IMG/VR virus record: IMGVR_UViG_3300012960_000001
Coordinates: 1-56,429 of that record
Length of the DNA stretch: 56,429 nt
Reading direction: 5' to 3' (one strand)
DNA from: a virus
Each line of letters opens with the position of its first letter. Within the stretch, counting starts at the first letter, position 1. This document shows positions 5,932-46,495 of this stretch, piece by piece. Below the pieces are notes generated by a model, which was not told the origin of the DNA, searched no databases, and worked only from the letters and a program-made list of their open reading frames with translations. The translations under genes and the position numbers were made by a program.

Positions 5932-6096
5932 TTACTCTACGTTCATTTTCGATTTTAGTGTATAAAATACTGTTACTGTCTTACCAGGGTAGATCTTCTT
6001 CAGCCGGTCTGCTATATCGTGCCGCTTTTCGTACTCGCAGTTCTCGATTGTACGGCGGACCTTCCCGTTTATTTCAAGGTGCAGGGTGACTGTCAT
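5932..6096 (-). CDS. Small protein, 54 aa (below the track cutoff)
   Basis: Hand translation: MTVTLHLEINGKVRRTIENCEYEKRHDIADRLKKIYPGKTVTVFYTLKSKMNVE. ATGA overlap with the upstream methylase. Confidence 0.45.
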   Translation of the reverse strand: MTVTLHLEINGKVRRTIENCEYEKRHDIADRLKKIYPGKTVTVFYTLKSKMNVE

Positions 6097-6731
6097 GGGA
6101 ATAGTGTAGTTTGCCTTTTGAAATTGCTCATTCTCTCCATAGCGCGTTTATGATATACCTTATCTATTTCAAAACCAACATAATCAAATCCCATTGACAA
6201 ACATGCTATTAAAGAACTACAGCTGCCGGCATAATTGTCTAATATTTTATAACCTGGCTTGGCGTAGTACTTGAGTAGCCATTTATATAGACCAACCGGC
6301 TTTTGATGAATATGGATAGTAGGCTCATTTTCAAACTTGACTGCACCGCACCAATGACCGGTAAACTTTCTTATACGTGCTCGTTTAGAATACCAGGCGA
6401 TATCACATGCGCTCATATTGTGTTTATCTGGATCCGCTTTTTTATCCCAGATAATAAAAGAGCCTTCTGGATTAAGGTGCTCAATCATATATTGGCATCC
6501 CCAGATAATTGAACTTTTTGCAACCCTATTCACTTCGGCAAAATATTCTTTAGGAGGAATAGTCTTATTACGATATTCGGTATCTTTTGTACGATGTCGT
6601 TGGAATTTATTCTTTTGCATTATACTTCCTCCATACGGTGGATCGTCGATGGCTAAGTCGAAGTATTGATCGGGATAACTTGCCATCCCCTCCATGCAAT
6701 CCATATTATATAGATTATTTAGCTCTAACAT
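6093..6731 (-). CDS. DNA N6-adenine/N4-cytosine methyltransferase (beta class)
   Basis: DPPYGG catalytic motif near the N-terminus. AdoMet motif NYAGSCSS..GFDYVGFEID near the C-terminus. Confidence 0.88.
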   Translation of the reverse strand: MLELNNLYNMDCMEGMASYPDQYFDLAIDDPPYGGSIMQKNKFQRHRTKDTEYRNKTIPPKEYFAEVNRVAKSSIIWGCQYMIEHLNPEGSFIIWDKKADPDKHNMSACDIAWYSKRARIRKFTGHWCGAVKFENEPTIHIHQKPVGLYKWLLKYYAKPGYKILDNYAGSCSSLIACLSMGFDYVGFEIDKVYHKRAMERMSNFKRQTTLFP

Positions 6732-7349: not shown

Positions 7350-7558
7350 AATTCTTTGTTTAGTAAATCATCGATCGATACATTAAAGACCTTTCCTATT
7401 CCTGCAAGCATGTTTAAGTTTGGCTCCGATTTACCAGACTCCCAACAGGCATACCGGGTTCTGGCGATGCACAAATCCTCCGCTGTCTCAAATTGATTCT
7501 TACCTAATAACTCCCTCAGTTTTTTCAGGTTGTGAATGAATATCTGTTTGGGTACCAT
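7346..7558 (-). CDS. XRE-family HTH regulator
   Basis: KNQFETAEDLCIARTRYACWESG...IGKVFNVSIDDLL. Confidence 0.8.
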   Translation of the reverse strand: MVPKQIFIHNLKKLRELLGKNQFETAEDLCIARTRYACWESGKSEPNLNMLAGIGKVFNVSIDDLLNKEL

Positions 7559-8171
7559 TTATATTAGTTTTTAAGTAATCTATGTTTGCTTGCCTAAATA
7601 GCTCTTTGATTTCCTTCTGATCGTCACATTCCCTGTCAATTGGTCCTAACGATTTTAATTGCGCGTGACGTTCTTCCTGATAGTTAGAATAGGAAATATG
7701 CCTTTCCTGTCTGTAATTTTCTAGTAGCTCAAATAAAATTTGCTGGTCCATTCTATCGAGAATGCGGCCATACTTACCGGTAATAGCCCCTTGAAAAAAT
7801 ACAGCCAAATCCTCTACACTCAATTGATCTTCAGAAGCGGTGTTCATAAGTTCAAATGAGCAACTAACAATCTGCGATTCCGTCATAGGTCGAATCAGAT
7901 TAAGGCTATTGCAAAAATTCGTTACGAGAATTACAATCAAAGCGTGTATCCTTTTGTTGCCATATTTAGCCGCAAGACCCGGTATCCTATCCTGTAAGGG
8001 TGTCTGCAATAGCAGGGGAAATTGAGGTGCGCCAGCCTTGATATACGACGAAACAATACTTGAAATCTGAAAATCATCCCGAACGCGAATAGAATTTAGC
8101 AAAAGCGCTGTTGAGCTGTTCGCTGCTGAACTTTGCACCTGCTTGGCTTCCCTTTTTTGCATCTGTCCCAT
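7500..8171 (-). CDS. Hypothetical protein, possible replication accessory factor
   Basis: Track ORF, 223 aa, immediately downstream of the DUF1376-like gene. Start is uncertain (98-nt overlap). Confidence 0.55.
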   Translation of the reverse strand: MGQMQKREAKQVQSSAANSSTALLLNSIRVRDDFQISSIVSSYIKAGAPQFPLLLQTPLQDRIPGLAAKYGNKRIHALIVILVTNFCNSLNLIRPMTESQIVSCSFELMNTASEDQLSVEDLAVFFQGAITGKYGRILDRMDQQILFELLENYRQERHISYSNYQEERHAQLKSLGPIDRECDDQKEIKELFRQANIDYLKTNINGTQTDIHSQPEKTEGVIR

Positions 8172-8931
8172 TTCGTAGCTTTTGACAAATATTTTGTATG
8201 TGTTTATTTACTTGATATAGGCTGTAATCCCGGAAGAAATTATGCCCAGCAATGTATTCGGTCAACCCCTCCCATATCGTCGAAATTTGGCATGCTGTAG
8301 CCCCGTTTAGAGGATCGTATGGAGTTTTCTCCTGATCGCAAATGAAGCTGGCAATTGATTGGAGAGCCGGTAAGTCTTTAAACTTGTCAACAGGGTATTG
8401 CGGTTTTGCTTTTTTCCAAATCGACAGCATTTGCGGAATTAAAAACTGATCTTCCCCCACACCCCTATCTTTTTTTTCATTTTCTATTTCATTTTCTATT
8501 TCATTTTCTATTTCATTTTCTATTTCATTTTCTAAAAGGCTTTTCTCCGGCTTTTCTCCGGCAAACCCGGGGTTAACCCGGGGCTTTTCTCCGGCATAAC
8601 CCCCGGCTTTATTTGGCGCCTTAGGACGACCCCCCTTTTTCCCTCTTTCAGATTGCGCCGCGCGGAAATTTTTACGTCGGTCGATTTCTAAATCCATTCG
8701 TTCGTTGAAGAATAATCCGTCGGCATCCTGTCTAAATTTTTCACTCACAATGGGCCATAGCTTATCAAAGCAACCACGAGAAAGCCTTATTATGGTATCG
8801 CGCGATAAATGTCCTTTTTGTTGTTGATGACATAGCAAATCAGTAAAAAACCCCTTTTCTTCAAAATTAAAATGTGAAGTCCCGGTAAGATAGTCGGACG
8901 CATACCATAAAACAGATGGATCTTTCGACAT
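8074..8931 (-). CDS. DUF1376 (YdaU-like) phage replication-associated protein with an internal repeat linker
   Basis: N-terminus WYASDYLTGTSHFNFEEKGFFTDLLCHQQQKG fits the DUF1376 pattern. Contains ENEIENEIENEI... and GEKP repeats. Confidence 0.65.
   Translation of the reverse strand: MSKDPSVLWYASDYLTGTSHFNFEEKGFFTDLLCHQQQKGHLSRDTIIRLSRGCFDKLWPIVSEKFRQDADGLFFNERMDLEIDRRKNFRAAQSERGKKGGRPKAPNKAGGYAGEKPRVNPGFAGEKPEKSLLENEIENEIENEIENEIENEKKDRGVGEDQFLIPQMLSIWKKAKPQYPVDKFKDLPALQSIASFICDQEKTPYDPLNGATACQISTIWEGLTEYIAGHNFFRDYSLYQVNKHIQNICQKLRNGTDAKKGSQAGAKFSSEQLNSAFAKFYSRSG
8476..8535. repeat. Tandem 12-bp repeat ttcattttctat x5 (in frame, encodes an EIEN repeat)
   Basis: Counted directly. Followed by gcttttctccg at 8539, 8550 and 8583, and aacccgggg at 8563 and 8574. 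Confidence 0.95.
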
Positions 8932-9557
8932 TATAACCTCCCTTTTTTGTGCAGGTCTAAACTCTTTTCACAAAGCCCAATAAATTCATTGAATTGAGTA
9001 TCCTCGGATGAATAGTCAATTTTATTCTTCAAAAAGTGTATTTGCCTAATTGCTTCAATTACTCCATCCCCGGTAGCAAATAACCAGTGACTTAATTCCT
9101 GATAAGAGTGATTTTCTAAATCAAGATATTCTGGATGATTGGATCTACTCATTTCTGTACCGCTCACCCTGTAGGTGGTCCAACCTAAATGTGATAGTGC
9201 CAAATCTCTTTCTCTGTCTTTGGCCCAATCCTTGTGAAACTCTTTACCATCCAATTCAAGAGCTATTTTAAAGTATGGGTTTCCGAAATCAATAAAGTAT
9301 TTTCCAACGGGATATTGTGGATATAGTACGACTGAGCCTTTCACTCGCATACAGTTCCAGGCCAACTTTTCAATAGGACTAAAAAATGTGTTGTAATCTA
9401 CTACGTAAGAGTAATACCATTTCGTTGGATATTTTTTTGCTAGATCAAGTATATATTTTTCATGTGTGGTATAGAACTCTTTTAAGTCTTCCAGGATCGC
9501 GAAGTATCGTTTCCTTTCTTCGGTCTTTACCATTTCATCATATTCTTCTCTGTTCAT
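8931..9557 (-). CDS. DUF559/Vsr-like endonuclease-fold protein
   Basis: C-terminal FIDFGNPYFKIALELDGKEFHKDWAKDRERDLALSHLGWTTYRV resembles DUF559 / very-short-patch repair nucleases. Confidence 0.55.
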   Translation of the reverse strand: MNREEYDEMVKTEERKRYFAILEDLKEFYTTHEKYILDLAKKYPTKWYYSYVVDYNTFFSPIEKLAWNCMRVKGSVVLYPQYPVGKYFIDFGNPYFKIALELDGKEFHKDWAKDRERDLALSHLGWTTYRVSGTEMSRSNHPEYLDLENHSYQELSHWLFATGDGVIEAIRQIHFLKNKIDYSSEDTQFNEFIGLCEKSLDLHKKGRL

Positions 9558-11658: not shown

Positions 11659-12269
11659 GACTTACCTAATATGATTTTGAAAGAAGATTTAGAGGTCTTG
11701 GAAGGTCCTATAAGTGTTTCTCCGGTGGATTCGTCTACTAAAGCGCTGCCTGCAGGAATCATTTTGAGCCTCTTCTCTATCTCATTCTTTTTTTCTTGTA
11801 TCGCTTTTATCTGTTTGTCCAAGGCATCCCATTCAGGATTTGCGGAGTAATCATACTTGGTTCCGGTCTCTGCCAACTCAAACTTTACCCCTCTACCGGT
11901 GGTATAGCCTTTACCGTACTTTTTGATTTCATCCATGACGGCGGACCTGAATTCTTTATCGCCTTCGCTGCCCTCTGTGCCATGGATTACATCCTTTAGC
12001 TTACAGAAGAACTGGATTGCTTCTAGGTATTCAAACATTCCCCGGCCCTCCTCTAAGATCATCGTGCGCATCTGCTGGTGGAACTCCGTTACGTTCTGCT
12101 TAGTCAGGCGCAGGATGGTACCGGGCACGATTTCAGACACAACCGGGTAGTTGGCCATGGCATCCTGGTACTCGGCGTATTTTTGATCCTGTAGATGGCC
12201 CTGTTCTCTGTATGCCATGTCAGCGTTCATTTCATGCTCTGACATTTCTTCGAATAAGTCTTTGCTCAT
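11655..12269 (-). CDS. Hypothetical protein translationally coupled to RecT
   Basis: 204 aa. 4-nt overlap with recT. No nuclease motif recognised. Confidence 0.6.
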   Translation of the reverse strand: MSKDLFEEMSEHEMNADMAYREQGHLQDQKYAEYQDAMANYPVVSEIVPGTILRLTKQNVTEFHQQMRTMILEEGRGMFEYLEAIQFFCKLKDVIHGTEGSEGDKEFRSAVMDEIKKYGKGYTTGRGVKFELAETGTKYDYSANPEWDALDKQIKAIQEKKNEIEKRLKMIPAGSALVDESTGETLIGPSKTSKSSFKIILGKS

Positions 12270-13003
12270 GCGGTTTGTTTTTCAGATTTTAATTGGCTTT
12301 TACGCGCGGAGAGTTTGGATTTCAAATCCGGATTGCCCTCAAACATCGTGGCATGTAGTTTATAAAGTTTGCCTAACTCGTTAACCGTTTCGGACATATC
12401 GATTAGTAATTCAATATCCGTTTCGGTCTGTGCGGGCAGCAGCGTAACATCAGATGTTTCAGGATTATCACTTTGTTGCATTTCATCGTTTGTATAGAGA
12501 CCAGACAAATCTTGGGGATATGCTTTTCGGAGTGCCAATGCCTCAGCTACCTTAGATAGCATGGTATGCGGCATTTTAAGCCACATCTGATCCTGACCAG
12601 ACTGCGGAACATATTCATTCCAGTATGCCACGCCCACCGCTGCTTCATACCTTATATCCCCACGGAAACGATAAACGGTTACTTCAGCCGATATTAACCT
12701 TCCATCCTGCTCACAGAATACTGGTTTGCCCTGACCGCCATAGTCCCCGCTACGTTCAGCAATAACCCGGAAACCGTCTATGGAAGTTTGAATGGTCATT
12801 TTCTTTTCATACTGCCCGGTTTCTTTGTTTTTAGCATTACGCAGCATGCAGTATATCTGACGGGTTAACGGGTCTAGCCCGGTGCGGCGGCACTGATAAA
12901 GAAATAACTTTAGCTGGTCGTCGTTGGTTCCAGGGGCAATTTGCTTTTTAATCAAGTCAACCTGATCATTGTTAAAGTCTATTTTCATTAATCCCTTTTC
13001 CAT
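12266..13003 (-). CDS. recT: RecT-family single-strand annealing protein
   Basis: LKLFLYQCRRTGLDPLTRQIY...TSIDGFRVIAERSGDYGGQ, typical RecT/Bet core. Confidence 0.88.
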   Translation of the reverse strand: MEKGLMKIDFNNDQVDLIKKQIAPGTNDDQLKLFLYQCRRTGLDPLTRQIYCMLRNAKNKETGQYEKKMTIQTSIDGFRVIAERSGDYGGQGKPVFCEQDGRLISAEVTVYRFRGDIRYEAAVGVAYWNEYVPQSGQDQMWLKMPHTMLSKVAEALALRKAYPQDLSGLYTNDEMQQSDNPETSDVTLLPAQTETDIELLIDMSETVNELGKLYKLHATMFEGNPDLKSKLSARKSQLKSEKQTA

Positions 13004-23142: not shown

Positions 23143-23598
23143 ATGGCGCTCACTGAAAAGATGATAAGATTCTGCAATGAGTATCTCATTGACTTGAATG
23201 CTACCCAAGCAGCAATAAGGGCCGGTTACTCGGAAAACAGCGCTCGACAAATCGGAGATGAGAACTTGTCAAAACCAGATATTCAAGCTTATTTAGATGT
23301 ACGCCGTAAGGAAATACAAGCCAGGCTTGAATTGAACCAGGATTGGGTGTTAAAAAGGCTCAGGGAGATATCTGACCGCTCCATGCAAGCCGAACCCGTT
23401 CTAATGTTCAATGGTGAAGAATGGGTAGAAAGCGGTGAATACAAGTATGACTCTAACGGTGCCAATAAAGCAACAGAGTTAATCGGTAAGCATTTAGGAA
23501 TGTTCGTCAATAAGATCGATATGACTACTAAGGGCGAATCCCTCAATGATAAGAAACCCACTGTAACCCTCCCTGACGGAACCCAAATCGAAATATGA
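23143..23598 (+). CDS. terS: Terminase small subunit
   Basis: FCNEYLIDLNATQAAIRAGYSENSARQIGDENLSKPDIQAYL, classic Terminase_2 signature. Confidence 0.92.
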   Translation: MALTEKMIRFCNEYLIDLNATQAAIRAGYSENSARQIGDENLSKPDIQAYLDVRRKEIQARLELNQDWVLKRLREISDRSMQAEPVLMFNGEEWVESGEYKYDSNGANKATELIGKHLGMFVNKIDMTTKGESLNDKKPTVTLPDGTQIEI

Positions 23599-24890
23599 AC
23601 GAATTAGTCGTTGTTGATCTTAGCAAGAATCCCAAACAATATGACTACTGGATAGAAGTTGTTAAATCCTGCAATGGCCTCACAGATAAACGCAAGTTCG
23701 CATACGGGGGAGCGATACGCGGCGGTAAAACCTTCATCACACTATGGATACTCATTTACCTAGCTAACCGCTATAAAGGTTCTAAATGGCATATTATCCG
23801 GCATGATTTCCCGGCCCTGCAGGAAACCGTTATCCCATCACTGGAAAAGATTATCAAAGACTCACCTAACTGGAAGTGGAACAAGGATAAGTCCAACTTC
23901 TTTGCGTATAACAAACACGGTTCAAAGATATTCTTCAAAGCAGAGAACATAAAGCAGGATCCTGAGCTTGATGATTTTCTGGGGCTAGAGACTAACGGCA
24001 TCTTCCTAGAGCAGTTGGAAGGGCTTAGCCAAAAGTTATGGGGAATGGCGTTATCCCGGTGCGGATCCTGGTATATTGACCCGATGCCACCGGCGTTCAT
24101 GTTCACTACCTTTAACCCGACGCAGAAGTGGCCCAAAAAGGAGATTTATCTAAAGCATAAGAATAATGAGTTACCGGCTGATTTCCACTACCAAGAGGCT
24201 TTCCCTACGGATAACGCCTATGTGACACAAGACCAGTGGAATGCCTGGGGAACGATGGACGAGCGCTATCAAAAGCAGTTCATTAACGGTGACTGGACTA
24301 ACTTCGATGAGTCCGATAACCTCTTTTGTTATTCTTACAGTGAGGCTAAACATACCGGTGTGGTAGAACTTAACTCCAAGGGAGAGGTTTACTTGTCGTT
24401 TGACTTCAACGTGGATCCTATCACATGCCTGGTGGCACAATTATATAATGGTACCTTGTTCGGAGTCGAGCAAATCTCCCTTACTAACAGCGACATCTAC
24501 AAGCTGTGCGCCTATATAAAGGCTAAATATGGGGGCCGCATGTTCCTGGTAACAGGGGATGCTTCCGGCCAGAACCGATCAGCGCTTACTAAGGATAACA
24601 TCAACTACTATCAGATAATTAAGAATGAACTGGGGCTAGGATGGGGACAATTCAAGGTACCGGCTTCCAATCCCTCCCTAGAAGAAAACCGTGTACTAGT
24701 TAATGCTGTACTACATAAGCATAAGGTGGTGCTTGATAAGGAGGGGTGCAAAAAGTTAATCCATGACGTGGAAAACGTTCGGGTACTGGCGGATGGCGGG
24801 ATTGATAAATCGGATAAGTCACTGACGCATGCCCTCGATTGCTTCCGGTATATCTGCAATACCTTCCTTAGCTGGATATTAAAGACCTAA
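23595..24890 (+). CDS. terL: Terminase large subunit
   Basis: Walker A-like YGGAIRGGKTF. FLVTGDASG and HALDCFRY nuclease-region motifs. Overlaps terS by 4 nt. Confidence 0.9.
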   Translation: MNELVVVDLSKNPKQYDYWIEVVKSCNGLTDKRKFAYGGAIRGGKTFITLWILIYLANRYKGSKWHIIRHDFPALQETVIPSLEKIIKDSPNWKWNKDKSNFFAYNKHGSKIFFKAENIKQDPELDDFLGLETNGIFLEQLEGLSQKLWGMALSRCGSWYIDPMPPAFMFTTFNPTQKWPKKEIYLKHKNNELPADFHYQEAFPTDNAYVTQDQWNAWGTMDERYQKQFINGDWTNFDESDNLFCYSYSEAKHTGVVELNSKGEVYLSFDFNVDPITCLVAQLYNGTLFGVEQISLTNSDIYKLCAYIKAKYGGRMFLVTGDASGQNRSALTKDNINYYQIIKNELGLGWGQFKVPASNPSLEENRVLVNAVLHKHKVVLDKEGCKKLIHDVENVRVLADGGIDKSDKSLTHALDCFRYICNTFLSWILKT

Positions 24891-25710
24891 CTGTTTTTAA
24901 TTCCTCTTTTATCCGTTCTAGACACCCCTCATAAGTAAAGTATTTCTGATATATATCCGGTATCGCTTCCTGCTTCCGCTTTATTTCCTCCGGCGGTATT
25001 GACATTAGTATCTCATGCACTCTATGGGCGTCTGCGGCATCAATAAGGACTCCATAATCCGTGAACGGTATGTTATGAGGGATCACCCACTCATCGCTTA
25101 TATAGACCGGAATGGAGCCGTATTGCAAGGCTTCCTGGATGCGGAAGGAAGTCGGCCCGAACCCACGCGGGCAAAGGGTGAAAACGGAGTTGGCGATGAT
25201 CCGGCAGTAATCATACAGGTCATGCTTAGCGGTATTTATATAGTATTCAGGTAAGCATGGAATCGCCTTTAACATAATATCCCTAATGGGATGTGTTGCT
25301 TTCCCGATGAAGTTAGCGAATGTGTTTCGATTGCCATTGGGGTGTAACCTATAGCCATGTGGTACACTTATCAATGGCAGCGGATAATCGGTCCTTCCCC
25401 CCGACATGCTAAAGACCTTAATGTCCAGATGTGAGAGATTGTGCTGAATGCCGTTATCATATTGCACAATTGTATATAGCTTCTTTGACCGATCTAGCCC
25501 ATTCAGGAACTTCTGCAGGTCAATCATTGCCGGTTTGTGCTGGCCGAATTTGTGCCGGCAGTAATAGGCCGTCCACATGACCGGCAGATATTCGCGTTCT
25601 GTATCCTGGAAGTCGTAGTTCTCGAAGTACCAGCGTTCGAACTCAGTTTCGTTGTCGGGGGGATATTTGAATGGGTGGCGCGGCTGGAACTTTTCGGGGA
25701 CGTGGATCAT
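24868..25710 (-). CDS. Exostosin-like (GT47-like) glycosyltransferase
   Basis: FTLCPRGFGPTSFRIQEALQYGSIPVYISDEW..PF matches the exostosin C-terminal signature. Confidence 0.7.
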   Translation of the reverse strand: MIHVPEKFQPRHPFKYPPDNETEFERWYFENYDFQDTEREYLPVMWTAYYCRHKFGQHKPAMIDLQKFLNGLDRSKKLYTIVQYDNGIQHNLSHLDIKVFSMSGGRTDYPLPLISVPHGYRLHPNGNRNTFANFIGKATHPIRDIMLKAIPCLPEYYINTAKHDLYDYCRIIANSVFTLCPRGFGPTSFRIQEALQYGSIPVYISDEWVIPHNIPFTDYGVLIDAADAHRVHEILMSIPPEEIKRKQEAIPDIYQKYFTYEGCLERIKEELKTVRSLISS

Positions 25711-26063
25711 GAGCAGAAGGGGTTTTTTTCGTTATTACTCCTGCACCAGTCTCTAATTGAGTTCTGAACTTCATAGAAAATCGTTGCCTCTCCTGTCATT
25801 TCCTTAGTCAGCTCGTCGGCCCTTTCGGTATCTGCATATTGTTTGGCTATGTCCCGGCGAATGACCTTAATTTTAGAATCAGCCCGCAATTGCTCCATTT
25901 TGTTTGTCAGGTAAGATAAAAGTGATCGTGTACGTTCTTTACCAGCGCACCACCCCAAAAAAAAACCAAACATAATACCCATGATGAATATCATTCCCGC
26001 TACAACATAAGATACTGACATATTATTTATTTTTAATGTAAATGGAGTCCCCCCAAGTACCAC
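25707..26063 (-). CDS. Single-pass membrane protein
   Basis: TM segment VAGMIFIMGIMFGFFLGW. Confidence 0.55.
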   Translation of the reverse strand: MVLGGTPFTLKINNMSVSYVVAGMIFIMGIMFGFFLGWCAGKERTRSLLSYLTNKMEQLRADSKIKVIRRDIAKQYADTERADELTKEMTGEATIFYEVQNSIRDWCRSNNEKNPFCS

Positions 26064-26637
26064 CCTGCCACGATGTTTCTACCCGGGTAAAATCCTTTAA
26101 TATCACATCTAAGTCCCACACTTTGGCACAGCCTTCATAGACTTCATCGCGGTTCACCTCGCAGTATACATAGTCAATGTGCTTCAGGGTTTCTGTTGCC
26201 CCTTGAAGTACCAAGTGTTCTGCTCCCTGCACATCCATTACTAGCATATTGTACTTCCGCTTATCAAAGTCCAGCGAGTCCAGCGTTTTAACCTCCACAT
26301 TCTCCGTGCCGGTGAACTGGATGCTCGGATATTGCTCTAAGTGTTTGGCCGGCTTCAGAAGGCTGTTGCTCATGCCGGTATTAGCCGTTTCGGTGTACAT
26401 GGTTGCCGTGCCTTCCTCGGCCCCACATGCGAAGTTGAATAGCTTTACATCCTCGCATTCCTCAAAGCTGGCTACAAGGGCATTAAAGGCATTAGCACAG
26501 GGTTCTATGAATACGATGTGCCGAATGCCAAGTACTTTGTAGGTCATGTACTCTTGACCTTGGTGAGCTCCGCAATGTAATACTCCCCTTATCTGCATGC
26601 CATACTTCCGGACAGCTTTTTTAAGATCAATCAGCAT
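26023..26637 (-). CDS. FkbM-family SAM-dependent methyltransferase
   Basis: HCGAHQGQE..VFIEPCANAFNAL...FNFACGAEEGTATMY...MSNSLL...LVMDVQGAEHLVLQGA. Confidence 0.78.
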   Translation of the reverse strand: MLIDLKKAVRKYGMQIRGVLHCGAHQGQEYMTYKVLGIRHIVFIEPCANAFNALVASFEECEDVKLFNFACGAEEGTATMYTETANTGMSNSLLKPAKHLEQYPSIQFTGTENVEVKTLDSLDFDKRKYNMLVMDVQGAEHLVLQGATETLKHIDYVYCEVNRDEVYEGCAKVWDLDVILKDFTRVETSWQGGTWGDSIYIKNK

Positions 26638-26846
26638 ATGTTAAGTTTAGTATCGGTTATTGCATCTACTATATTGAAATCCTCCCAACCAGAAGGCGCT
26701 TGGTCGTCAAATGGATTATCACATACCGCCTCCCATCTTGTCCAACGCCACCACAGCAGCCTATAATGTTCAAGCCTTTCAAGCTTGATGGCCCAATTAT
26801 TGAACCCTTGGTGATAATACCTTACTGTTCTATATTGGCTTAGCAT
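26631..26846 (-). CDS. Hypothetical protein
   Basis: Track ORF, 71 aa, overlap-coupled. Confidence 0.5.
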   Translation of the reverse strand: MLSQYRTVRYYHQGFNNWAIKLERLEHYRLLWWRWTRWEAVCDNPFDDQAPSGWEDFNIVDAITDTKLNIC

Positions 26847-27408
26847 GTAAAAAGGCTATTTTTTCATTATAAATATGAAACTCTATACCAGCAAATCCGC
26901 ACGTCCAATCACAATCAGTCATTTGTTTTAGCATTGTCTCAGATAATGGTAGACCCTGACGGTATGGTTCATCCATGGCGCAATGCAGGTCTTCCGCCAC
27001 GTAAAGATCACAGCACCCCCACAATGACCAAAAGGTAATCAGCTGATCCCGGCTATTATGGCTTCCATCCTCAATGATCACGTCGAAGTGCAACCGGCGC
27101 AACTGCTCCAACACATACTGGTCCGTCTGGTTCCCCTTCCAGTAGATTACGCCTGGTATGTCCGTTGGCTGCGGATGTTCCTCGAATAGATCAAGGCAGT
27201 GTATCTCCGTATCAGGGAAGTACTCTCTCCACATGCGCAGGCTCGCGCCCGTGAGGCAGCCTATTTCGAGGATGCGGGCCGGTTTCTCGGGAAGATGCTG
27301 CTCATAGAATTCGATATATCCATGGGTCAGTTTGTCAGTACCGTACTTCTCGGCCAGCTGAGATAAAGTATATTCTCGTTCATAGTCACAGCAGTTATAG
27401 TCGTCCAT
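26830..27408 (-). CDS. Class I SAM-dependent methyltransferase (TylF/sugar O-methyltransferase-like)
   Basis: YGTDKLTHGYIEFYEQHL...ILEIGCLTGASLRMW...CLDL. Confidence 0.75.
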   Translation of the reverse strand: MDDYNCCDYEREYTLSQLAEKYGTDKLTHGYIEFYEQHLPEKPARILEIGCLTGASLRMWREYFPDTEIHCLDLFEEHPQPTDIPGVIYWKGNQTDQYVLEQLRRLHFDVIIEDGSHNSRDQLITFWSLWGCCDLYVAEDLHCAMDEPYRQGLPLSETMLKQMTDCDWTCGFAGIEFHIYNEKIAFLHAKPI

Positions 27409-27418
27409 ATAAAAAAAT

Positions 27419-27580
27419 TCAGGGAATAAGAGGTATTAAGAATATAACAACCTTAATTGACACAACAAATAGAACAAATTGAAACATAGGTGGCGCAGCA
27501 AGATGAAATTTGAAGTCGTCACCGTCAATATCAATTTCTATGACAGGCTTTTTGAAAAATGATGTAATTAATTCTTTCAT
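27419..27580 (-). CDS. Small membrane protein, 53 aa (below the track cutoff)
   Basis: Hand translation: MKELITSFFKKPVIEIDIDGDDFKFHLAAPPMFQFVLFVVSIKVVIFLIPLIP. Confidence 0.4.
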   Translation of the reverse strand: MKELITSFFKKPVIEIDIDGDDFKFHLAAPPMFQFVLFVVSIKVVIFLIPLIP

Positions 27581-27584
27581 ATAA

Positions 27585-28289
27585 TTAATATTTTATTTGA
27601 ATCCAAGATTCGGGAATGAGGTCTGAAGTATCAAGATGACCGTTTGAGGGCCCGAACCAGTTATCCTTGCTAGGGCTGATCACAACTTTATCCGGGTTTT
27701 GGTTGAGATAAGCCTGCCACCAGGAGAATGTACTATTGCTAATAATGTTATGCTCACAGCAGGAGCCAAGTACGAGATCTTCTTCCGGTGTGCGGCCTTC
27801 GGAGAATTCAACAATGCAGTTTGCATACATTCTACGAGATACAAAGTCACGGCAATACTCAATATCGTCTGAGAAAACTAGGAACCGTCTAATATCTGTG
27901 TTTTTGATAATATGCCAGACAGCTTGGTCCAGATAGTCCTCTGTAATCACCGGGTGCTTGTCGGGATAAAGCAGGTAATCCGCCCGGCGCACATGTATGC
28001 TACACCAGCCCTCCTTTAATGACCAATCATAACCAAACGCCTTTAGCACTTCCTCCCGGCAATGGTCGAAGTAACGGGCCGATTGCCAGTATCCATCCAG
28101 AATAATATTAGTATTTGGATAGAAAGGTGGGTCCTGATACTGATGGCCATTCTCTTTGATCATGATACCTTGACGGCGTATATTCGTTGTGTTGTATTGT
28201 ATGCCGTGCTTCATTGCATAGCCTATAGCTGCAGCCTTTTGAAAGAGCTGGTTTCCAGTTCTACCATATTGTTTAGCAAAAACTGTCAT
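27585..28289 (-). CDS. GT11 alpha-1,2-fucosyltransferase-like glycosyltransferase
   Basis: GRTGNQLFQKA, HVRRADY, VFSDD and SNSTFSWWQAYL, the four GT11 motifs. Confidence 0.88.
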   Translation of the reverse strand: MTVFAKQYGRTGNQLFQKAAAIGYAMKHGIQYNTTNIRRQGIMIKENGHQYQDPPFYPNTNIILDGYWQSARYFDHCREEVLKAFGYDWSLKEGWCSIHVRRADYLLYPDKHPVITEDYLDQAVWHIIKNTDIRRFLVFSDDIEYCRDFVSRRMYANCIVEFSEGRTPEEDLVLGSCCEHNIISNSTFSWWQAYLNQNPDKVVISPSKDNWFGPSNGHLDTSDLIPESWIQIKY

Positions 28290-29020
28290 TATAAAGCTTT
28301 TATAAGTTCCTTAATCTCTTTAGCGCGCTTCATGTTATAGTGAACATCCTGCAAGAATCCTGAACCATCCCACACCCGATGCATATATTCCATTCCTGGT
28401 ACCACATAGAACGAATTACCGGCCTTTAGCCACAGGTAGTTAAACCATATCGTATCTGTTCCCTTCATGGCTGGATTGTGCTCGTATACCCGTAGATACT
28501 CATCCCGGTTCACCACGTAATTGCAGCAGTTAAAAAGGCATTCGCCCATTGGTTCCTGCATGATGTTGCCGGCGTGAAGGACATGCCAGCCCTCGTACTT
28601 CCGGAAGTCGAATTGAGGTTTAGCAAAGGAAGGGCAATAGATTGTGGTAGTATCGAACCAGTATTGTTCATTTATTCCTTTTTTGCGCAATGCTGCTGCA
28701 TGGAAATTGCAAGCCTTGAATAAAGCATCTAAGTAGCTTGAAGTTATTATATTATCACTATCAAATATGATGCACCAATCGTTTTTAGCCGCCTCAATTG
28801 CCTTTCGCTTATTCAGGCTCATGCCTAAGTTCTCACTGTTCCGGATAAGGCGCACCTTGGGCATGTCGAATACCACGCTTAATATCTTATCGTAGATGGC
28901 TATATCCGAACAGTCATCTACTATCAATATCTCGCTTATCCGGTCGTCGTTCAATACCTGCGCAAAGCTCTCTATGAGCATTTCGTATCGGTTATATGTG
29001 GTAATGCAGAGGGAAATCAT
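28289..29020 (-). CDS. GT2-family glycosyltransferase
   Basis: ISLCITTYNRYEML...ILIVDDCSD...IFDSDN. Confidence 0.85.
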   Translation of the reverse strand: MISLCITTYNRYEMLIESFAQVLNDDRISEILIVDDCSDIAIYDKILSVVFDMPKVRLIRNSENLGMSLNKRKAIEAAKNDWCIIFDSDNIITSSYLDALFKACNFHAAALRKKGINEQYWFDTTTIYCPSFAKPQFDFRKYEGWHVLHAGNIMQEPMGECLFNCCNYVVNRDEYLRVYEHNPAMKGTDTIWFNYLWLKAGNSFYVVPGMEYMHRVWDGSGFLQDVHYNMKRAKEIKELIKAL

Positions 29021-29436
29021 AGGTATTTCAGTCTTTCAAGTACATCTTCAGAAGTATGTCCGTCAAACTCCGGAGCCTTATCCAATTCCTTAGCAAAATC
29101 ACATAAGTCCCATTTCGATGCTGGTAAGTGATAAGTGATCTGTTCCCCATATTCAATACCGATCCCTAGCACAAACCAGCCATCCCAACTTGTGCCATCA
29201 GAATGTACTTTGCTGCGCCATACTACTTCTCGGGAATCGTCATTTTTTTCATAGTATAGCGCCATAAACCTAGCCAGGGCGATGTATAACTCTATCCGAT
29301 GGTCATACAGTTCCCCGAAAGTATGGTAGCCGTCGGAGATACGGTTGGTATCCATAGCCACCTCTTTTTTTGCCTTTGCAATCCGTGCATTAATTTCTTG
29401 CGCGGTGGTAACTTGTATATTTACAGCTCCTATCAT
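29017..29436 (-). CDS. Hypothetical protein
   Basis: Track ORF, 139 aa. SDGYHTFGELYDHR and WDGWFVLG segments. Confidence 0.6.
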   Translation of the reverse strand: MIGAVNIQVTTAQEINARIAKAKKEVAMDTNRISDGYHTFGELYDHRIELYIALARFMALYYEKNDDSREVVWRSKVHSDGTSWDGWFVLGIGIEYGEQITYHLPASKWDLCDFAKELDKAPEFDGHTSEDVLERLKYL

Positions 29437-29594
29437 GTATATGAAGTTTTAGTTTTTGTCTTAGCACATTTATCACAAATGTATCTTTCAGTAGTGGCCT
29501 TGCCCATACCCGCATCTATTCGATATGTATAAGTTCCGAGGAAGCGCCAAGTATGCCTACAGAATAATTGCGTAATCCAAAGTCTTATATGCAT
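29433..29594 (-). CDS. Small protein, 53 aa (below the track cutoff)
   Basis: Hand translation: MHIRLWITQLFCRHTWRFLGTYTYRIDAGMGKATTERYICDKCAKTKTKTSYT. Overlaps both neighbours (TAATG and ATGA). Confidence 0.4.
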   Translation of the reverse strand: MHIRLWITQLFCRHTWRFLGTYTYRIDAGMGKATTERYICDKCAKTKTKTSYT

Positions 29595-30187
29595 TACGTA
29601 AAGAACTTTTTAGACTGGTTATTAAAGTATTTATAGTTAATATCCATTTCGCATATGTCTGAATATCCAAATCGTTGCCCAGCTATCTGCGGATAAGCTA
29701 TAAAGCAGTTGAACTTCGGCTGTATTTCTTTAGCAAACCACACGTCAATTGTATTCTGCCGGTCTACTTGCTCCGGAACTACCATGTTATCCGCCAACCA
29801 TTGCGTCATTTTAGCGCTGTAAAGGATGGCGTGGGTAGTGAGTATTCCATTGGCCCGGTAAAGCCATGTACTGTATCGGTATTGCGGTTGGTTGGCATTC
29901 CCGCCTAAGTACAGCATGTCCCAGTCATCTGGAAGGTCACCATAAGCATCCTGAAGGGCGGTAATGGGCCGGTTGAATACTACATCATCCTCTAATACTA
30001 AAACATGTTTGCCCACGTATAGCTTGAATATGGCTTGATTAGAATGGTGTAGGCCATGCATCCCACTTGATCCGGTAAGGGCCGGGAAACGTTCTGCATT
30101 CAGTCCCCAATTGCTAAATTCTTCCTGACACTGTTTCCAGCGGTCGGTTCGTTTATCAAGGTTTATGCAGATGGCCTTATCCCACAT
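29594..30187 (-). CDS. GT25-family glycosyltransferase (LOS/LPS beta-glycosyltransferase-like)
   Basis: AICINLDKRTDRWKQC...GLNAERFPA...LVLEDDVVF. Confidence 0.75.
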   Translation of the reverse strand: MWDKAICINLDKRTDRWKQCQEEFSNWGLNAERFPALTGSSGMHGLHHSNQAIFKLYVGKHVLVLEDDVVFNRPITALQDAYGDLPDDWDMLYLGGNANQPQYRYSTWLYRANGILTTHAILYSAKMTQWLADNMVVPEQVDRQNTIDVWFAKEIQPKFNCFIAYPQIAGQRFGYSDICEMDINYKYFNNQSKKFFT

Positions 30188-30383
30188 GTATCTGCTGGTT
30201 TAGCTCAAAGTATGCACAGTAGTAATCTTCAATTGTTGGCATATCTTTTACTTCGCACATTCCATTACAAGGTTCCGGATCTTCTAAACACCCCCTTCCG
30301 CGCTTCCAATAAAAGCAATTAGCGCACTTTACTAAAGGCGATAGCCCATTGAACCATTCTATTTTCGGAGTCTCTATTGCCAT
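30177..30383 (-). CDS. Small Cys-rich protein, first gene of the glycosylation operon
   Basis: Track ORF, 68 aa with 7 Cys. Confidence 0.5.
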   Translation of the reverse strand: MAIETPKIEWFNGLSPLVKCANCFYWKRGRGCLEDPEPCNGMCEVKDMPTIEDYYCAYFELNQQIHVG

Positions 30384-30420
30384 GAGTATTATTTAGTGAA
30401 GTACCCGTTTCAAAGTTATA

Positions 30421-30433
30421 TATAAAATCTATA
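30421..30433 (+). promoter_or_regulatory. Late-operon motif tataaaatctata (copy 2); a TAacTTTG -7-like box lies at 30463-30470
   Basis: Identical to 22906-22918. Sits in the divergent region between the GT operon and the tail operon. Confidence 0.45.
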
Positions 30434-30474
30434 CAAATAGTATTTTCTATAGAAAAAAACAATAACTTTGTTTT

Positions 30475-30837
30475 ATGGCACTCCTGAATGATTGTGGCAA
30501 TATCTACTACCAAAGTCTACCTGCTTGTGCGGATGGATTTACAGTGTCTTTGGGTCTGGATGCTAATACAGACTACTGGTGGATACTCACGGACAAGTTC
30601 GGGCATGTATACAGTGAAGTAGTAACAACAGATTCCCAAGGGGCCTTTATCGTGAGTGTAGATGATTTCCCACCGGATTTTTTCAACCCTTATGCTGGGC
30701 AGATGGAATTGGAGATCAAAGGAGATCCATACTACTGTGAGCCTTTAGAGTTTACAGTTTGTGATGTCGCTTATAATAGGCTGGTAATAGATTTCAAAGA
30801 GGGTAATTTACCCGCTATAATACCTTGTGTATGCTAG
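30475..30837 (+). CDS. Hypothetical protein
   Basis: Track ORF, 120 aa. Confidence 0.6.
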   Translation: MALLNDCGNIYYQSLPACADGFTVSLGLDANTDYWWILTDKFGHVYSEVVTTDSQGAFIVSVDDFPPDFFNPYAGQMELEIKGDPYYCEPLEFTVCDVAYNRLVIDFKEGNLPAIIPCVC

Positions 30838-42851: not shown

Positions 42852-43087
42852 TGGTCAACCTGCTTACCACTTATAGGATGGGTTATGAATCTCCAATGAG
42901 TAGCATGCCAGTTCCATCCATTAGCTATACGCCTATTAACACTAAAATATCCGGTACGTTTATCAATGGTTATAATTAAATCATGCTCCCAGGGCGGAGC
43001 ATCATCTAGACTAATCCATGCATGCTCATTTACAAACTTTAATGCATTTTCCCGACACTCTTCCGCTGTTTCAAAACCACTGTACAT
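42848..43087 (-). CDS. Hypothetical protein
   Basis: Track ORF, 79 aa, antisense to the head operon. Confidence 0.5.
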   Translation of the reverse strand: MYSGFETAEECRENALKFVNEHAWISLDDAPPWEHDLIITIDKRTGYFSVNRRIANGWNWHATHWRFITHPISGKQVDH

Positions 43088-43092
43088 ATAAA

Positions 43093-43512
43093 TTATTTTA
43101 TTTGCAACTCGTCCCCAGTAATGGAAAAATGTAAATTCTGTAATTCATGTACGTATTTCAATTCCTTTCTAATATCCTGTACTCCGGAATCATATTCAAA
43201 AAATATAGGTAACGGATCGTGAAGTCCATTTGAAACATAGCATATCTTTTCCCCTTTAGGGCCTTCAAAACCCCATACAATTTGATCAATCTCATTATCC
43301 AAAGTCACCATTCCGAATTTCTCCATCCATTTTTCAGTAAGTGGAATGCCAGATAATTCATTTTCGTAGGCTATAGCGAGATGTTCCTTTATAAGATAGC
43401 GTACTAGAGGCGCATCTGATCTCCTAATTTCTTCAATTGTGATAATTTGTTCATTTGAATGCAAGTCCCTATAAACCCAATTGCCAATTCTTAGTTGCGA
43501 AACATTTATCAT
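43093..43512 (-). CDS. Hypothetical protein
   Basis: Track ORF, 139 aa. Confidence 0.55.
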   Translation of the reverse strand: MINVSQLRIGNWVYRDLHSNEQIITIEEIRRSDAPLVRYLIKEHLAIAYENELSGIPLTEKWMEKFGMVTLDNEIDQIVWGFEGPKGEKICYVSNGLHDPLPIFFEYDSGVQDIRKELKYVHELQNLHFSITGDELQIK

Positions 43513-43522
43513 TATAAGTTAT

Positions 43523-43714
43523 TTATAGCCATAAAAAAGACTTTAATTTCCCCAATACATTTTTGATCATCCCCTTCCCGTTGCGCATCCTGGTTATTTC
43601 TCCCGTCTTAGGATCCACATTTACCATGCAGTTGTAACAGGAAAGTAATCCATCATATGGTTCCTCCAATTGCTCTAAACACACCGGGCAGTTTAGTATT
43701 TTCTTGTCAGGCAT
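43523..43714 (-). CDS. Small zinc-ribbon protein
   Basis: CPVCLEQ...CYNC. Confidence 0.5.
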   Translation of the reverse strand: MPDKKILNCPVCLEQLEEPYDGLLSCYNCMVNVDPKTGEITRMRNGKGMIKNVLGKLKSFLWL

Positions 43715-43923
43715 CCGCGAATTTACGAATTCTGTTTAGGGTATGCGATCCTCAGCAGATCATAAAGCGCAGCTTCAAACCCAAATCTACATCCGCATTG
43801 ATCTTTTTTCTTCTCCTGATGTGCTGTTATCATTTCCATTATATCCTTTGGAACCTTTGTTAATAGCTTCGCGGGCTTCTTTATGGTAGAATCCATTATT
43901 TGTTTTTATATAGCAAATATATA

Positions 43924-43936
43924 GATAAAATTTATA
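43924..43936 (+). promoter_or_regulatory. Late-operon motif variant gataaaatttata (copy 3); a TAttTTTG -7-like box lies at 43965-43972
   Basis: 11/13 identity to the 22906 and 30421 copies. TTG at 43942-43944 lies 20 nt upstream of the -7 box. Confidence 0.4.
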
Positions 43937-43996
43937 GAAAGTTGATTATGATATAGAAAATATCTATTTTTGATATAGGATAACACAATATTCTTT

Positions 43997-44365
43997 ATGG
44001 CCGAGAAAATGCTAAAAATAGTTCAGGATGGTCGGGAGTCTTATATCCCTGATAATAGATTTAACCGGGCCTTCTGGACTAAACATAATTCAAGGGTAGC
44101 CGGTAGTTACAACGCGCAAAGAGAGCTTGTGACAATTCTCCAACCATCACAGAATGAGTTAGCAGAATTAGAAAAACAAACCGCCTTAGAAATAGGACAG
44201 AAACCCGTTATTGCGGCTGCAAACAATGAACTGGACACACTGAAGCAGCAGGTTGCGCAGATGCAGGAGATGATTGCTAAACTCACTGAGCCGGTAGAAG
44301 AACAACCAAAAGAGAAAGGAAAACCAGGCCCAAAACCTAAAAACGATAAAGATGGCGAAAGCTAA
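43997..44365 (+). CDS. Hypothetical protein (coiled-coil, basic C-terminus)
   Basis: Track ORF, 122 aa. Confidence 0.6.
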   Translation: MAEKMLKIVQDGRESYIPDNRFNRAFWTKHNSRVAGSYNAQRELVTILQPSQNELAELEKQTALEIGQKPVIAAANNELDTLKQQVAQMQEMIAKLTEPVEEQPKEKGKPGPKPKNDKDGES

Positions 44366-44433
44366 ACCAATGAAACCGCCGAAGCCAAAGGGTAAACCTT
44401 GCTGCGGTCGTTAATTCAATCAAAAAATCTTAT

Positions 44434-45367: not shown

Positions 45368-46495
45368 ATGGCAAACGGGTTCTGCCCCTCGATACTCGCG
45401 CAACTGAGTGATATTACTCAGTGTAATACTCCCGCATTTAAGGTTACACCGGCGGGTTTCCTGCAAAAATTACTGGAAGATAAGCCATCCCTTCAACTGC
45501 TCACATTAAGTGATGGTAATGGCCATCAGAGAGATGTACGTTATAAATACAAAAAGCGTATCGTTCCTTCTCAAACTGACACTGATGATAATTGTAACAT
45601 CAATTACATCCCTGCTTGGTTAGAAGCTGCGCTGGCTACTACTAACTTCCGCAAAGTAGCATTCTTTATTGATGATGAAACCATGGCAAAATACTGCGCC
45701 GATGCATCTCGCACGGTGATGGTAGGCCAGCCAGGCACACCACTTATGCAGGAGTTCATGACCGACGTTATGAACGCTGTGAATGGTTTGGTAGGTGGTA
45801 TTAACCAGGATCTACTCACTTTGCAGGCTATCAAGTTTGGCCGTAATGTAGTTACCGGTTTGAATACCGCACAAACGGTAAACATTCCTAAAGATGCCAC
45901 TCAGTATGACCTCAGCACCGGTATAACCAAAATCCTTGCTGACGCTTCTGAGAATGAGTTCTGCGGTGATATCTCTATCGTAGGTAGTGGTATCATGAAC
46001 AACTTCCAGATTCAACAGCTTGTTTCTTGTTGTAATGCTGGTGGTATCGATATGTCACGTTTTACTGGCTTCCGCTTTTATCATGATCTGTATGCTAAAA
46101 CCGCATGGGGTACTAACCAGGTAGGTGTATTCTCTCAGGGCTCTGTCGGTCTGATTGACATCATTCGTTATCAGGGCTTCCGCGCTGGCGACAAGGGTGT
46201 GTCTCAGTTCTTTACGCTGCCCTTACCGGTGCTATGTCCTAACTGTAATGGTGGTTATGACGCTTTGGAGGTTGACGCACAGCTGAAATACTTTGATTGC
46301 CCGCAGGATATTGAAAGTGAATGCGATGGTACTGTTCCTATCAACCGTGGTTATGCTCTGATTCTGTCTAAGACTTACGGATTGTTCAATGTTCCGTCTG
46401 ACGCTTATCAGAATGAGGCTATCTATAGTGATTGCGGTACGGATCGCCTGAGCGGTAATAACGGTACGTTGCGTTACACCATCACCAACAGCTAA
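45368..46495 (+). CDS. Putative major capsid protein
   Basis: 375 aa following the scaffold-like gene. Call is by position only. Confidence 0.55.
   Translation: MANGFCPSILAQLSDITQCNTPAFKVTPAGFLQKLLEDKPSLQLLTLSDGNGHQRDVRYKYKKRIVPSQTDTDDNCNINYIPAWLEAALATTNFRKVAFFIDDETMAKYCADASRTVMVGQPGTPLMQEFMTDVMNAVNGLVGGINQDLLTLQAIKFGRNVVTGLNTAQTVNIPKDATQYDLSTGITKILADASENEFCGDISIVGSGIMNNFQIQQLVSCCNAGGIDMSRFTGFRFYHDLYAKTAWGTNQVGVFSQGSVGLIDIIRYQGFRAGDKGVSQFFTLPLPVLCPNCNGGYDALEVDAQLKYFDCPQDIESECDGTVPINRGYALILSKTYGLFNVPSDAYQNEAIYSDCGTDRLSGNNGTLRYTITNS

Follow-up and report, generated by a model that had tools for sequence, protein, structure and literature searches.

Organization of the island between terL and d1

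The IMG/VR virus record IMGVR_UViG_3300012960_000001, a stretch of 56,429 nt that was analyzed as a whole (the window; all positions are those of this stretch), contains an island of glycosyltransferase (GT) and methyltransferase genes at 24868–30383, between terL, the gene of the terminase large subunit, and a conserved gene named d1. The original prediction described this island as an operon of twelve overlapping minus-strand genes. All twelve open reading frames (ORFs) were recovered with unchanged coordinates, and they fill the island at a coding density of ~100%, with junctions consisting of overlaps of 1–41 nt or gaps of 4–10 nt. The gene of the GT47-type enzyme ends the transcription order, and the overlap of its 3′ end with terL by 23 nt, which had been proposed at the outset, was also borne out. 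Six of the encoded proteins, namely the GT25-like, GT2, and GT11 transferases, a methyltransferase related to MycE and TylE, an FkbM-family methyltransferase, and the GT47 enzyme, in this order, are considered the core of the island (Table 1), because the small ORFs between the enzymes vary from copy to copy in related phages.

The six small ORFs located among the core enzymes (Cys-rich, WDGH, Zn-ribbon-like, and membrane) are interchangeable filler. The Cys-rich protein g1 gave no Pfam or PHROG match, and no tblastn match (E ≤ 1e-5) in the 38 related loci that were collected first, among them L007, L037, and L038. Small CxxC ORFs resembling the 53-aa ORF that follows the GT25-like gene turn up again in relatives. 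The ORF that had originally been listed only as a 139-aa protein is present, and its label was completed as a WDGH-domain protein; it had no tblastn match in any related locus searched, including other cassette copies, and no solved relative by sequence. Its domain aligns with the C-terminal region of PHROG families with profiles of ~190–350 residues. The single-pass membrane protein encoded next to the GT47 gene probably starts at an internal ATG, which would give ~104 aa, and it is kept only in L038 (59% identity). The small membrane ORFs were also considered as conserved anchors of the island, and this possibility was rejected, since they are missing from several copies.

The GC content of the island is 0.442 versus 0.418, and 5 of 51 segments were more deviant in tetranucleotide content. 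This unremarkable composition argues against recent acquisition and fits long residence in the genome. None of the ten island proteins tested matched the PADLOC defense models.

Table 1. Features of the island and of other loci of the window (matches are to Pfam unless another library is named).
Feature	Position	Strand	Remarks
g1, 68 aa, 6 Cys	30177..30383	-	outside conserved core
GT25-like glycosyltransferase (GT-A; lipooligosaccharide beta-galactosyl/glucosyl-transferase family), first core enzyme	29594..30187	-	phrog_2835 glucosyltransferase, 3e-8
53-aa small ORF, Cys/His pattern, variable filler	29433..29594	-	weak PHROG matches
WDGH-domain protein, 139 aa, outside conserved core	29017..29436	-	PF25311, E 1.5e-30; phrog_3392/3769
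GT2 glycosyltransferase, core enzyme	28289..29020	-	PF00535, 66 bits (cut-off 23.3)
GT11 alpha-1,2-fucosyltransferase-type, core enzyme	27585..28289	-	PF01531, 85.6 bits (cut-off 23.9); phrog_2644, 8e-41
53-aa ORF with C-terminal transmembrane segment, variable filler	27419..27580	-	hydropathy scan; not kept across cassettes
Class I S-adenosylmethionine-dependent sugar O-methyltransferase, MycE/TylE-like, 192 aa, core enzyme	26830..27408	-	phrog_21658 methyltransferase, 1.5e-25
71-aa ORF, variable filler	26631..26846	-	no Pfam or PHROG match
FkbM-family methyltransferase, core enzyme	26023..26637	-	PF05050, 68.2 bits; TIGR01444, 66.8 bits (cut-off 37.7)
Single-pass membrane protein, 118 aa from GTG start	25707..26063	-	hydropathy scan
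Compact GT47/exostosin-type GT-B glycosyltransferase, last core enzyme	24868..25710	-	PF03016 (Exostosin_GT47), 65.5 bits (cut-off 33.4)
terL, terminase large subunit, left border of hot spot 1	23595..24890	+	phrog_2, 7e-20
d1, conserved 120-aa protein, right border of hot spot 1	30475..30837	+	follows terL in relatives
Divergent promoter-like intergenic region, cassette/d1	30384..30474	.	two mirrored TAACTTTG boxes
Hot spot 2, between head protease and scaffold-like gene	42852..44433	.	cassette site in related phages
DNA methyltransferases, C5-cytosine and N6/N4 type	5072-5920 and 6093-6731	-	left arm, adjoining NinG
DUF559/MTES_1575 endonuclease-like gene	8931-9557		left arm, near methyltransferases

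Enzyme families encoded in the island

The labels GT2, GT11, FkbM, and exostosin/GT47, which had originally been given to four of the enzymes, held in a profile check, in which all of them scored above the cut-offs (Table 1). The motifs GRTGNQLFQ, HVRRADY, VFSDD, and SNSTFSWW, which together correspond to what we take to be the four-motif consensus of GT11, are all readable in the sequence. A profile built from 15 homologues of the GT47 enzyme found EXT2 among the PDB structures at an E value of 3.3e-13, and the AlphaFold model of this enzyme (predicted local distance difference test score 92.1) retrieved in a Foldseek search the GT47 domains of human EXT1, EXT2, and EXTL3 as its top 16 matches, with E values down to 2.6e-10 and template modeling (TM) scores of 0.55–0.68. 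The family GT114, to which chlorovirus A075L belongs, was not close to the GT47 enzyme in either comparison (profile E 0.04 over 43 residues; Foldseek E 1.5e-4, TM ~0.42, rank ~32). The GT25 label stood only in part, because the match to PF01755 in this phage reached 23.8 bits, which is 0.2 bits under the cut-off of 24, and covered only the N-terminal 45 residues, whereas about three quarters of 94 GT25-like homologues carry PF01755; membership at the family level appears likely. The TylF-like label, which had been proposed for the 192-aa methyltransferase, was abandoned, as no TylF match was found and the generic class I methyltransferase matches were weak and below their cut-offs. The sole significant solved relatives of this protein were MycE (3ssm, E 3.7e-10) and TylE (8ia9, E 1.8e-7), and the similarity covered only the catalytic domain. 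No solved relative was detected by sequence for the FkbM, GT11, and GT25 proteins.

The original prediction had also pointed out that flippase, polymerase, priming transferase, and Gtr genes are missing from the island, and the Pfam and PHROG scans agreed with it. No Wzx/Wzy-type flippase, polymerase, or priming transferase was found among the island ORFs or the other window ORFs scanned, and no O-acetylase-type gene was found among the island ORFs using Pfam and PHROG. A Gtr-type seroconversion set was likewise not found in the island, as the GT2 enzyme gave only a weak GtrB-like PHROG match (E 8.6e-4, no significant stretch), and no multi-pass membrane protein is encoded there. The island enzymes are soluble, without signal peptides and without multi-pass membrane partners, which means that they must act in the cytoplasm on nucleotide sugars. 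The further proposal that the acceptor is not linked to undecaprenyl, which had been derived from the lack of Wzx and Wzy, was not retained, because host genes could supply those functions.

The six-enzyme cassette in other phages

The core genes recur as a cassette that is portable, self-contained, and widespread, and the island represents one copy. The six enzymes were found in the same order in the relatives L001, L007, L037, L038, and L094, whose terL proteins are 59–75% identical, and this order is also kept in L039, which was found via a GT47 homologue. Among the relatives from the clade of this phage (the W-clade) the amino acid identity of the core enzymes is 52–87%, and the cassette is located at the terL–d1 junction wherever this junction is visible. 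The fixed order at such identity in at least five related phages shows that the island is more than a chance assembly. In L039, an NCBI metagenome contig, the GT11 gene (7505–8225 of that contig) is split into ORFs of 177 aa and 106 aa, which could reflect either a frameshifted pseudogene or an assembly error.

When IMG/VR was scanned with a GT47 profile, at least 152 viral contigs were found to encode a relative. This synteny search is at odds with the original view of the island as something unusual, and it shows that the island is not peculiar to this phage. For the classification of genomic context, 77 new IMG/VR loci were retained, of which 61 could be placed and 16 could not. In the largest group, 42 of the 77, the backbone is that of an elemo-like podophage, and the cassette, in sense orientation, fits tightly between terL, which here encodes 682 aa, and the gene of a 790-aa portal protein; terL and portal of this group were recognized via podophages of Flavobacterium, Cellulophaga, Tenacibaculum, and Maribacter. 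Eight loci carry the cassette between terL and d1 on a W-like backbone (seven in sense and one in antisense orientation), eight others carry it antisense downstream of the protease, also on a W-like backbone, and in three loci it follows the capsid block of a third backbone, which has a ClpP protease. All 61 placed loci have the cassette inside the packaging/head block, on three unrelated backbones and at no fewer than four junctions, and in none of them is it located beside an integrase or attachment site. Two loci beyond the 77, L041 and L043, contain sense copies between the protease and the scaffold/capsid genes. Most copies are in sense orientation, and the antisense orientation is a trait of only the clade of this phage. 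In the cultured elemo phage NC_055853.1 terL abuts the portal gene, and the 89 annotated features include neither an integrase nor a repressor, which makes a role in lysogeny only unlikely for the elemo-like lineage.

Homologues of terL were found in 33 metagenome and 39 viral loci, and in those relatives where hot spot 1 is empty d1 follows terL after 41–56 nt. A second hot spot is located between the head protease and the scaffold-like gene. In this phage it contains no glycosyltransferase homologue; it holds only an antisense 139-aa ORF (43093–43512) and a 122-aa ORF, and nowhere else in the window is the GC content as low (0.349 over 43001–44000). Homologues of this 139-aa ORF are located at the same spot in L047 and adjoin the cassette in L057. 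In L068 hot spot 2 is occupied not by glycosyltransferase genes but by a gene of ADP-ribosylglycohydrolase (11956–12750, minus strand; PF03747, E 3e-35). The absence of the cassette from the sister clade (L002–L006) was considered and ruled out, because the L002 contig carries a copy (L066), which is located at hot spot 2 and has a GT7 enzyme in place of GT25. On contig P0102 small ORFs surround the cassette, bacterial genes are close by, and Pfam identifies none of the flanking genes as encoding a virion protein. In three contigs of 63–129 kb (L184, L186, and L179) the GT47, GT11, GT2, and FkbM genes are found within runs of ~10–15 consecutive co-oriented ORFs of ~200–350 aa, which may represent bigger glycan clusters.

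Indications of a single pathway

The FkbM and GT47 genes, which are close neighbors in the island, are fused in some relatives. Such FkbM::GT47 fusion proteins, 467–489 aa long, were found in 20 of the 120 listed GT47 homologues (among P0070–P0115; L041 7707–9119; L043 10001–11431), and they constitute a Rosetta-stone link by which the methyltransferase and the exostosin-type transferase are predicted to work together. Nucleotide-sugar genes also accompany the cassette. In L041 a bona fide GDP-mannose 4,6-dehydratase gene, Gmd (TIGR01472, 393 bits), adjoins the GT11 homologue, and most other cassette copies carry an epimerase/dehydratase of the short-chain dehydrogenase/reductase (SDR) type, a context in which GDP-L-fucose is a candidate donor for the GT11 enzyme. 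Neither a Gmd nor an SDR nucleotide-sugar gene is present in the island or elsewhere in the window, so that the original remark on the lack of such genes applies here and does not extend to the many copies that carry one. In the equivalent slot of the cassette GT7 and GT25 alternate, and according to their Pfam descriptions both are families of galactosyltransferase type or lipopolysaccharide (LPS) type. Other relatives have, at the same hot spots, smaller sets of glycosyltransferase and methyltransferase genes, which are two GT2 genes at the terL–d1 junction, GT25 with a Methyltransf_24/rhamnosyl-O-methyltransferase-like gene after the protease, and GT2 with FkbM between scaffold and capsid.

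A promoter-like region between the cassette and d1

The intergenic region that separates the cassette from d1 contains two mirrored TAACTTTG boxes of the Bacteroidota −7 type (TAnnTTTG), one at 30411–30418 on the minus strand and the other at 30463–30470 on the plus strand. The block TATAGATTTTATATATAACTTTG is present in the W-clade relatives L037, L038, and L039, and with two base changes in L094; the L007 sequence upstream of its GT25 gene showed no TAACTTTG box. The region could thus serve as a divergent promoter for the cassette and d1. The TAnnTTTG motif is not enriched genome-wide (45 found versus 57 expected), and only the local conserved pair is of interest; a scan for sigma-70 promoters and terminators gave results at chance level. 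Terminator-like hairpins with T-runs are located between the promoter-like box and the first cassette gene in L038 (~5660–5765) and L041 (~4528–4561), and they may be attenuators of cassette expression.

Genome, lifestyle, and host of the phage

The window starts and ends with the same 123 nt (1–123 = 56307–56429), which indicates a complete circular genome of 56,306 bp. A gene encoding a 388-aa tyrosine recombinase spans the circular junction (~55320–56429 joined to 124–559) and was missed by linear ORF lists; its Pfam score is just under the cut-off, and the HxxR...H...Y residues are present. An HTH_3 regulator is encoded near this integrase, and genes of RecT, NinG, and two DNA methylases are located in the left arm on the minus strand. 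Judged from these genes, the phage is temperate. The plus-strand right arm carries, in this order, terS, terL, the minus-strand island, and the small genes d1–d4, which are followed by the genes of tape-measure-like and large virion proteins, portal, head protease, scaffold-like protein, and major capsid protein, and then by further head and tail genes, a beta-helix tailspike-like protein, and a GH19 lysin. The original prediction had placed tail genes directly downstream of the island; the neighbors are the small proteins d1–d4 and then the tape-measure-like protein, which are not clearly tail genes. The 375-aa protein (45368–46495), whose gene is adjacent to hot spot 2, is the HK97-fold major capsid protein, the model of which matches phage capsids at E 6.5e-8, and a 934-aa protein has a tailspike-like right-handed beta-helix.

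The phage is distant from those in culture. Megablast of an 11-kb stretch around the island gave no match among cultured phages, and the identity of its terL to that of any cultured phage is at most ~25%, with matches that include Bacteroides, Flavobacterium, Cellulophaga, and Polaribacter phages, and a Bacteroides phage at the lowest E value. A capsid homologue (39% identity) was found in a prophage integrated in Segetibacter aerophilus (Chitinophagaceae). Scans of a 185,579-genome isolate collection for terL and the GT47 profile returned no match, with peptide patterns that were probably too narrow. Because these scans were empty, the host was deduced from the Segetibacter capsid homologue and the elemo-like relatives, which suggest that it most likely belongs to Bacteroidota. 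The phage is regarded as one of soil Bacteroidota.

The acceptor of the glycan

The chance that the cassette serves to glycosylate virion proteins in the cytoplasm is, in our estimate, about even. The more specific proposal, that it is a portable module for the glycosylation of virions, is widespread among environmental phages of Bacteroidota, and adds a methylated oligosaccharide of fucose type to capsid or other virion proteins, is put forward tentatively, at slightly less than even chances. The soluble enzymes would draw on the nucleotide sugars of the host, this copy being without a Gmd or SDR gene, and would assemble stepwise a short oligosaccharide containing a 6-deoxyhexose, probably fucose. 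The two methyltransferases would then cap it by O-methylation, with FkbM acting jointly with the GT47 enzyme. The most likely acceptor would be a structural protein of the phage (capsid or another virion protein), co-produced with the packaging and head proteins, and the outcome would be a virion coated with a methylated glycan. The analysis establishes the gene content, the enzyme families, their conservation, the mobility of the cassette, and its nesting in the packaging/head module, and from these the donor sugars, the order in which the enzymes act, the time of expression, and the acceptor are inferred. Four arguments favor a virion acceptor: three unrelated backbones have received the cassette in their packaging/head block, at four or more junctions; the cassette usually points the same way as the late genes, with tight translational packing among them; the cultured relative of the commonest carrier lineage has no annotated lysogeny genes; and the mirrored conserved TAACTTTG boxes of this clade are common to the cassette and d1, the first structural gene. 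Virion glycosylation, one of the acceptor possibilities named in the original prediction, is thus a serious candidate, whereas the remodeling of the cell surface, which was named there as well, stays as its main rival.

Several observations weigh against a virion acceptor, and some of them are what would be expected if the enzymes extended and methylated a host lipid-linked glycan, such as the core of lipooligosaccharide (LOS) or LPS, an O-unit, a repeat of capsular polysaccharide (CPS) or exopolysaccharide (EPS), or a Bacteroidota O-glycan precursor, which would then be exported by the flippase and ligase of the host. Such remodeling of the host envelope, resulting in lysogenic conversion or superinfection exclusion with an altered receptor for the phage tailspike, is to our judgment the less probable explanation, although one that deserves to be taken seriously. 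The genome is that of a temperate phage, with its tyrosine integrase, HTH_3 regulator, RecT, and NinG, and a related prophage is integrated in S. aerophilus; the integrase, which spans the circular junction and was absent from the original prediction, keeps lysogenic conversion alive as an explanation. The cassette of this clade is oriented against the late genes, converging on terL, and a promoter-like box of its own precedes it, an arrangement that resembles a lysogenic-conversion moron. The enzyme families are typical of the assembly of lipid-linked LPS, LOS, CPS, or EPS, the GT2 enzyme has weak matches to GT2 enzymes of lipid-linked glycans, and the 934-aa beta-helix protein resembles the tailspikes present in seroconverting phages. 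Small membrane ORFs are interspersed in some copies, and the P0102 cassette has bacterial genes nearby and no Pfam-annotated virion protein at its flanks. A precedent is TarP of Staphylococcus aureus, a prophage-encoded cytosolic glycosyltransferase that remodels a host glycopolymer. The capsid and neighboring structural proteins also show no Ser/Thr-rich C-terminal tail or any feature that tracks the cassette type, and the computational evidence for the proposed acceptor goes no further than gene context. On the other hand, envelope remodeling does not readily explain why more than half of the 77 loci have the cassette in sense orientation, tight between terL and portal, in a lineage whose cultured relative has no annotated lysogeny genes, or why every placed copy is in the packaging/head block and none is by an integrase or attachment site, the usual location of conversion genes. 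The small membrane ORFs are not conserved, and genes of the Gtr, Wzy, or O-acetylase types were not found among the island ORFs.

It is improbable, in our view, that the acceptor is another cytoplasmic molecule, for example a soluble or secreted glycoconjugate, a glycolipid, or a non-structural protein of the phage or host, and that the packaging/head site is merely tolerated. This possibility draws on the 16 unplaced loci, which also weaken the case for a virion acceptor and of which the three examined hold the long co-oriented runs described above, and on the cyanophage S-SKS1, in which a GT47-like gene has epimerase and fucosyltransferase genes around it and is not part of a clear virion module. 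Tolerance alone, however, hardly explains the recurrence of the cassette in the same functional block of unrelated backbones. Glycan hypermodification of phage DNA before packaging is very improbable. Phage glycosyltransferases can hypermodify DNA (Pyle 2024, as cited in PMC12619734), and the cassette adjoins the terminase gene in many copies, yet GT11, GT25, GT47, the sugar O-methyltransferases, and Gmd represent families of protein or lipid glycans. The scan covered 11 ORFs of the left arm, each 200 aa or longer; none matched a thymidylate-synthase-like hydroxymethylase, and five had no Pfam match at all. The coding-strand ORFs outside this set are shorter than 135 aa. Only ordinary C5 and N6/N4 DNA methylases were found.

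In the related phage L054 (IMGVR_UViG_3300021387_000097), which has no visible cassette, the homologues of the capsid protein and of a second structural protein (h186) end in Ser/Ala/Glu-rich tails, e.g., ...PTPSSESASESVAPASESSASESQA. These tails resemble the glycosylated C-terminal tails reported for mycobacteriophages.

Comparison with known glycan-modifying systems

Classical seroconversion, which proceeds through gtrABC, O-acetylases, or Wzy swaps, employs one to three genes, among them the membrane-embedded GtrA/GtrC or Wzy, usually located by int/att. Like the phages of this type and those encoding TarP, the phage described here is temperate and carries accessory glycan-modifying genes, which in such phages are often transcribed apart from the late genes, and the carriers often use tailspikes against the glycan that is modified. 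Unlike these systems, the island is without membrane-embedded GtrA, GtrC, or Wzy, and it is located inside the head module. None of the defining features of Gtr-type or Wzy-type seroconversion is found in the cassette.

Closer parallels are found among viruses that glycosylate their own virions. According to papers citing Freeman 2023 (PMC11600133, PMC12619734), mycobacteriophages use tandem glycosyltransferases and an O-methyltransferase to modify capsid and tail-tube proteins. As in this island, the tandem glycosyltransferase genes of Corndog-like (cluster O) and Che8-like (cluster F) phages are described as located by an O-methyltransferase gene, with cytoplasmic enzymes and no flippase or polymerase. 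Adjoining glycosyltransferase and O-methyltransferase genes, which characterize the mycobacteriophage type, are present in the island. Going by the same citing papers, the mycobacteriophages differ in having Actinobacteria as hosts, in using three glycosyltransferases and one methyltransferase, compared with four and two here, and in carrying the glycans on subunit C-termini, while the capsid protein of this phage has no comparable C-terminal tail.

In chloroviruses the capsid glycan is made by soluble glycosyltransferases with Gal-, Xyl-, and Fuc-transferase domains, the exostosin-annotated A075L, two methyltransferases, and a viral GMD (PMC9614988). The likeness to the PBCV-1 system, which modifies Vp54 (PMC9614988, PMC11571054), extends to the soluble, virus-encoded, cytoplasmic enzymes, with the Gal/Xyl/Fuc-transferase domains in A111/114R, to A075L as a GT-B enzyme of ~280 aa acting on a fucose-containing core, to the two sugar O-methyltransferases (A064R-D3 and A061L), next to the viral GMD, and to the transferase-methyltransferase fusion A064R, which is comparable to the FkbM::GT47 fusions. 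In contrast, PBCV-1 is a eukaryotic giant virus with N-linked glycans, whose genes are dispersed and expressed early, and there is no real sequence kinship, as A075L (GT114) is a weak match and EXT1/EXT2 are the best ones for the GT47 enzyme. Together, the chlorovirus system and the mycobacteriophage one, as far as the citing papers describe it, indicate that cytoplasmic virus-encoded sets of glycosyltransferases and methyltransferases can decorate capsids.

The glycan or "LPS gene" clusters of cyanophages are also related in content. Homologues of GT11 with ~29–35% identity occur in 103 phage records, 84 of which are Synechococcus phages, and the GT47-like gene that Synechococcus phage S-SKS1 has among nucleotide-sugar epimerase and fucosyltransferase genes is 31% identical. 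However, S-SKS1 and the T4-like cyanomyoviruses are large and lytic, and in S-SKS1, the case examined, the cluster is located among metabolic genes, has no conserved six-enzyme order, and is not nested between terminase, portal, and capsid genes. Environmental studies group such genes as auxiliary glycosyltransferases (PMC13477221), and in the literature searched no description of the six-enzyme cassette was found.

Implications

What deserves notice is that the island is no oddity but belongs to a syntenic module that is widespread and linked to head genes. Glycosyltransferases of phages commonly go under the generic label of "auxiliary metabolic genes", and the present analysis defines among them a specific syntenic cassette of six to eight enzymes, which is common in soil and freshwater viromes. 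On either explanation of its role, the cassette is a source of compact enzymes (GT47, GT11, and sugar O-methyltransferases) whose pathway context is clear. Should it act on the host surface, it would count among Bacteroidota as a conversion module of unusual size. If it glycosylates virions, it would be the first system of this kind beyond those of actinobacteriophages and giant viruses, and the differing cassette types at the head-module hot spots would give rise to different virion glycan "serotypes". Glycan-coated capsids would then be a general phage trait rather than a peculiarity of mycobacteriophages, with consequences for the stability of virions, their adhesion to polysaccharide matrices, their recognition by grazers or immune systems, and the way in which counts of viral glycosyltransferases and methyltransferases in metagenomes are read.

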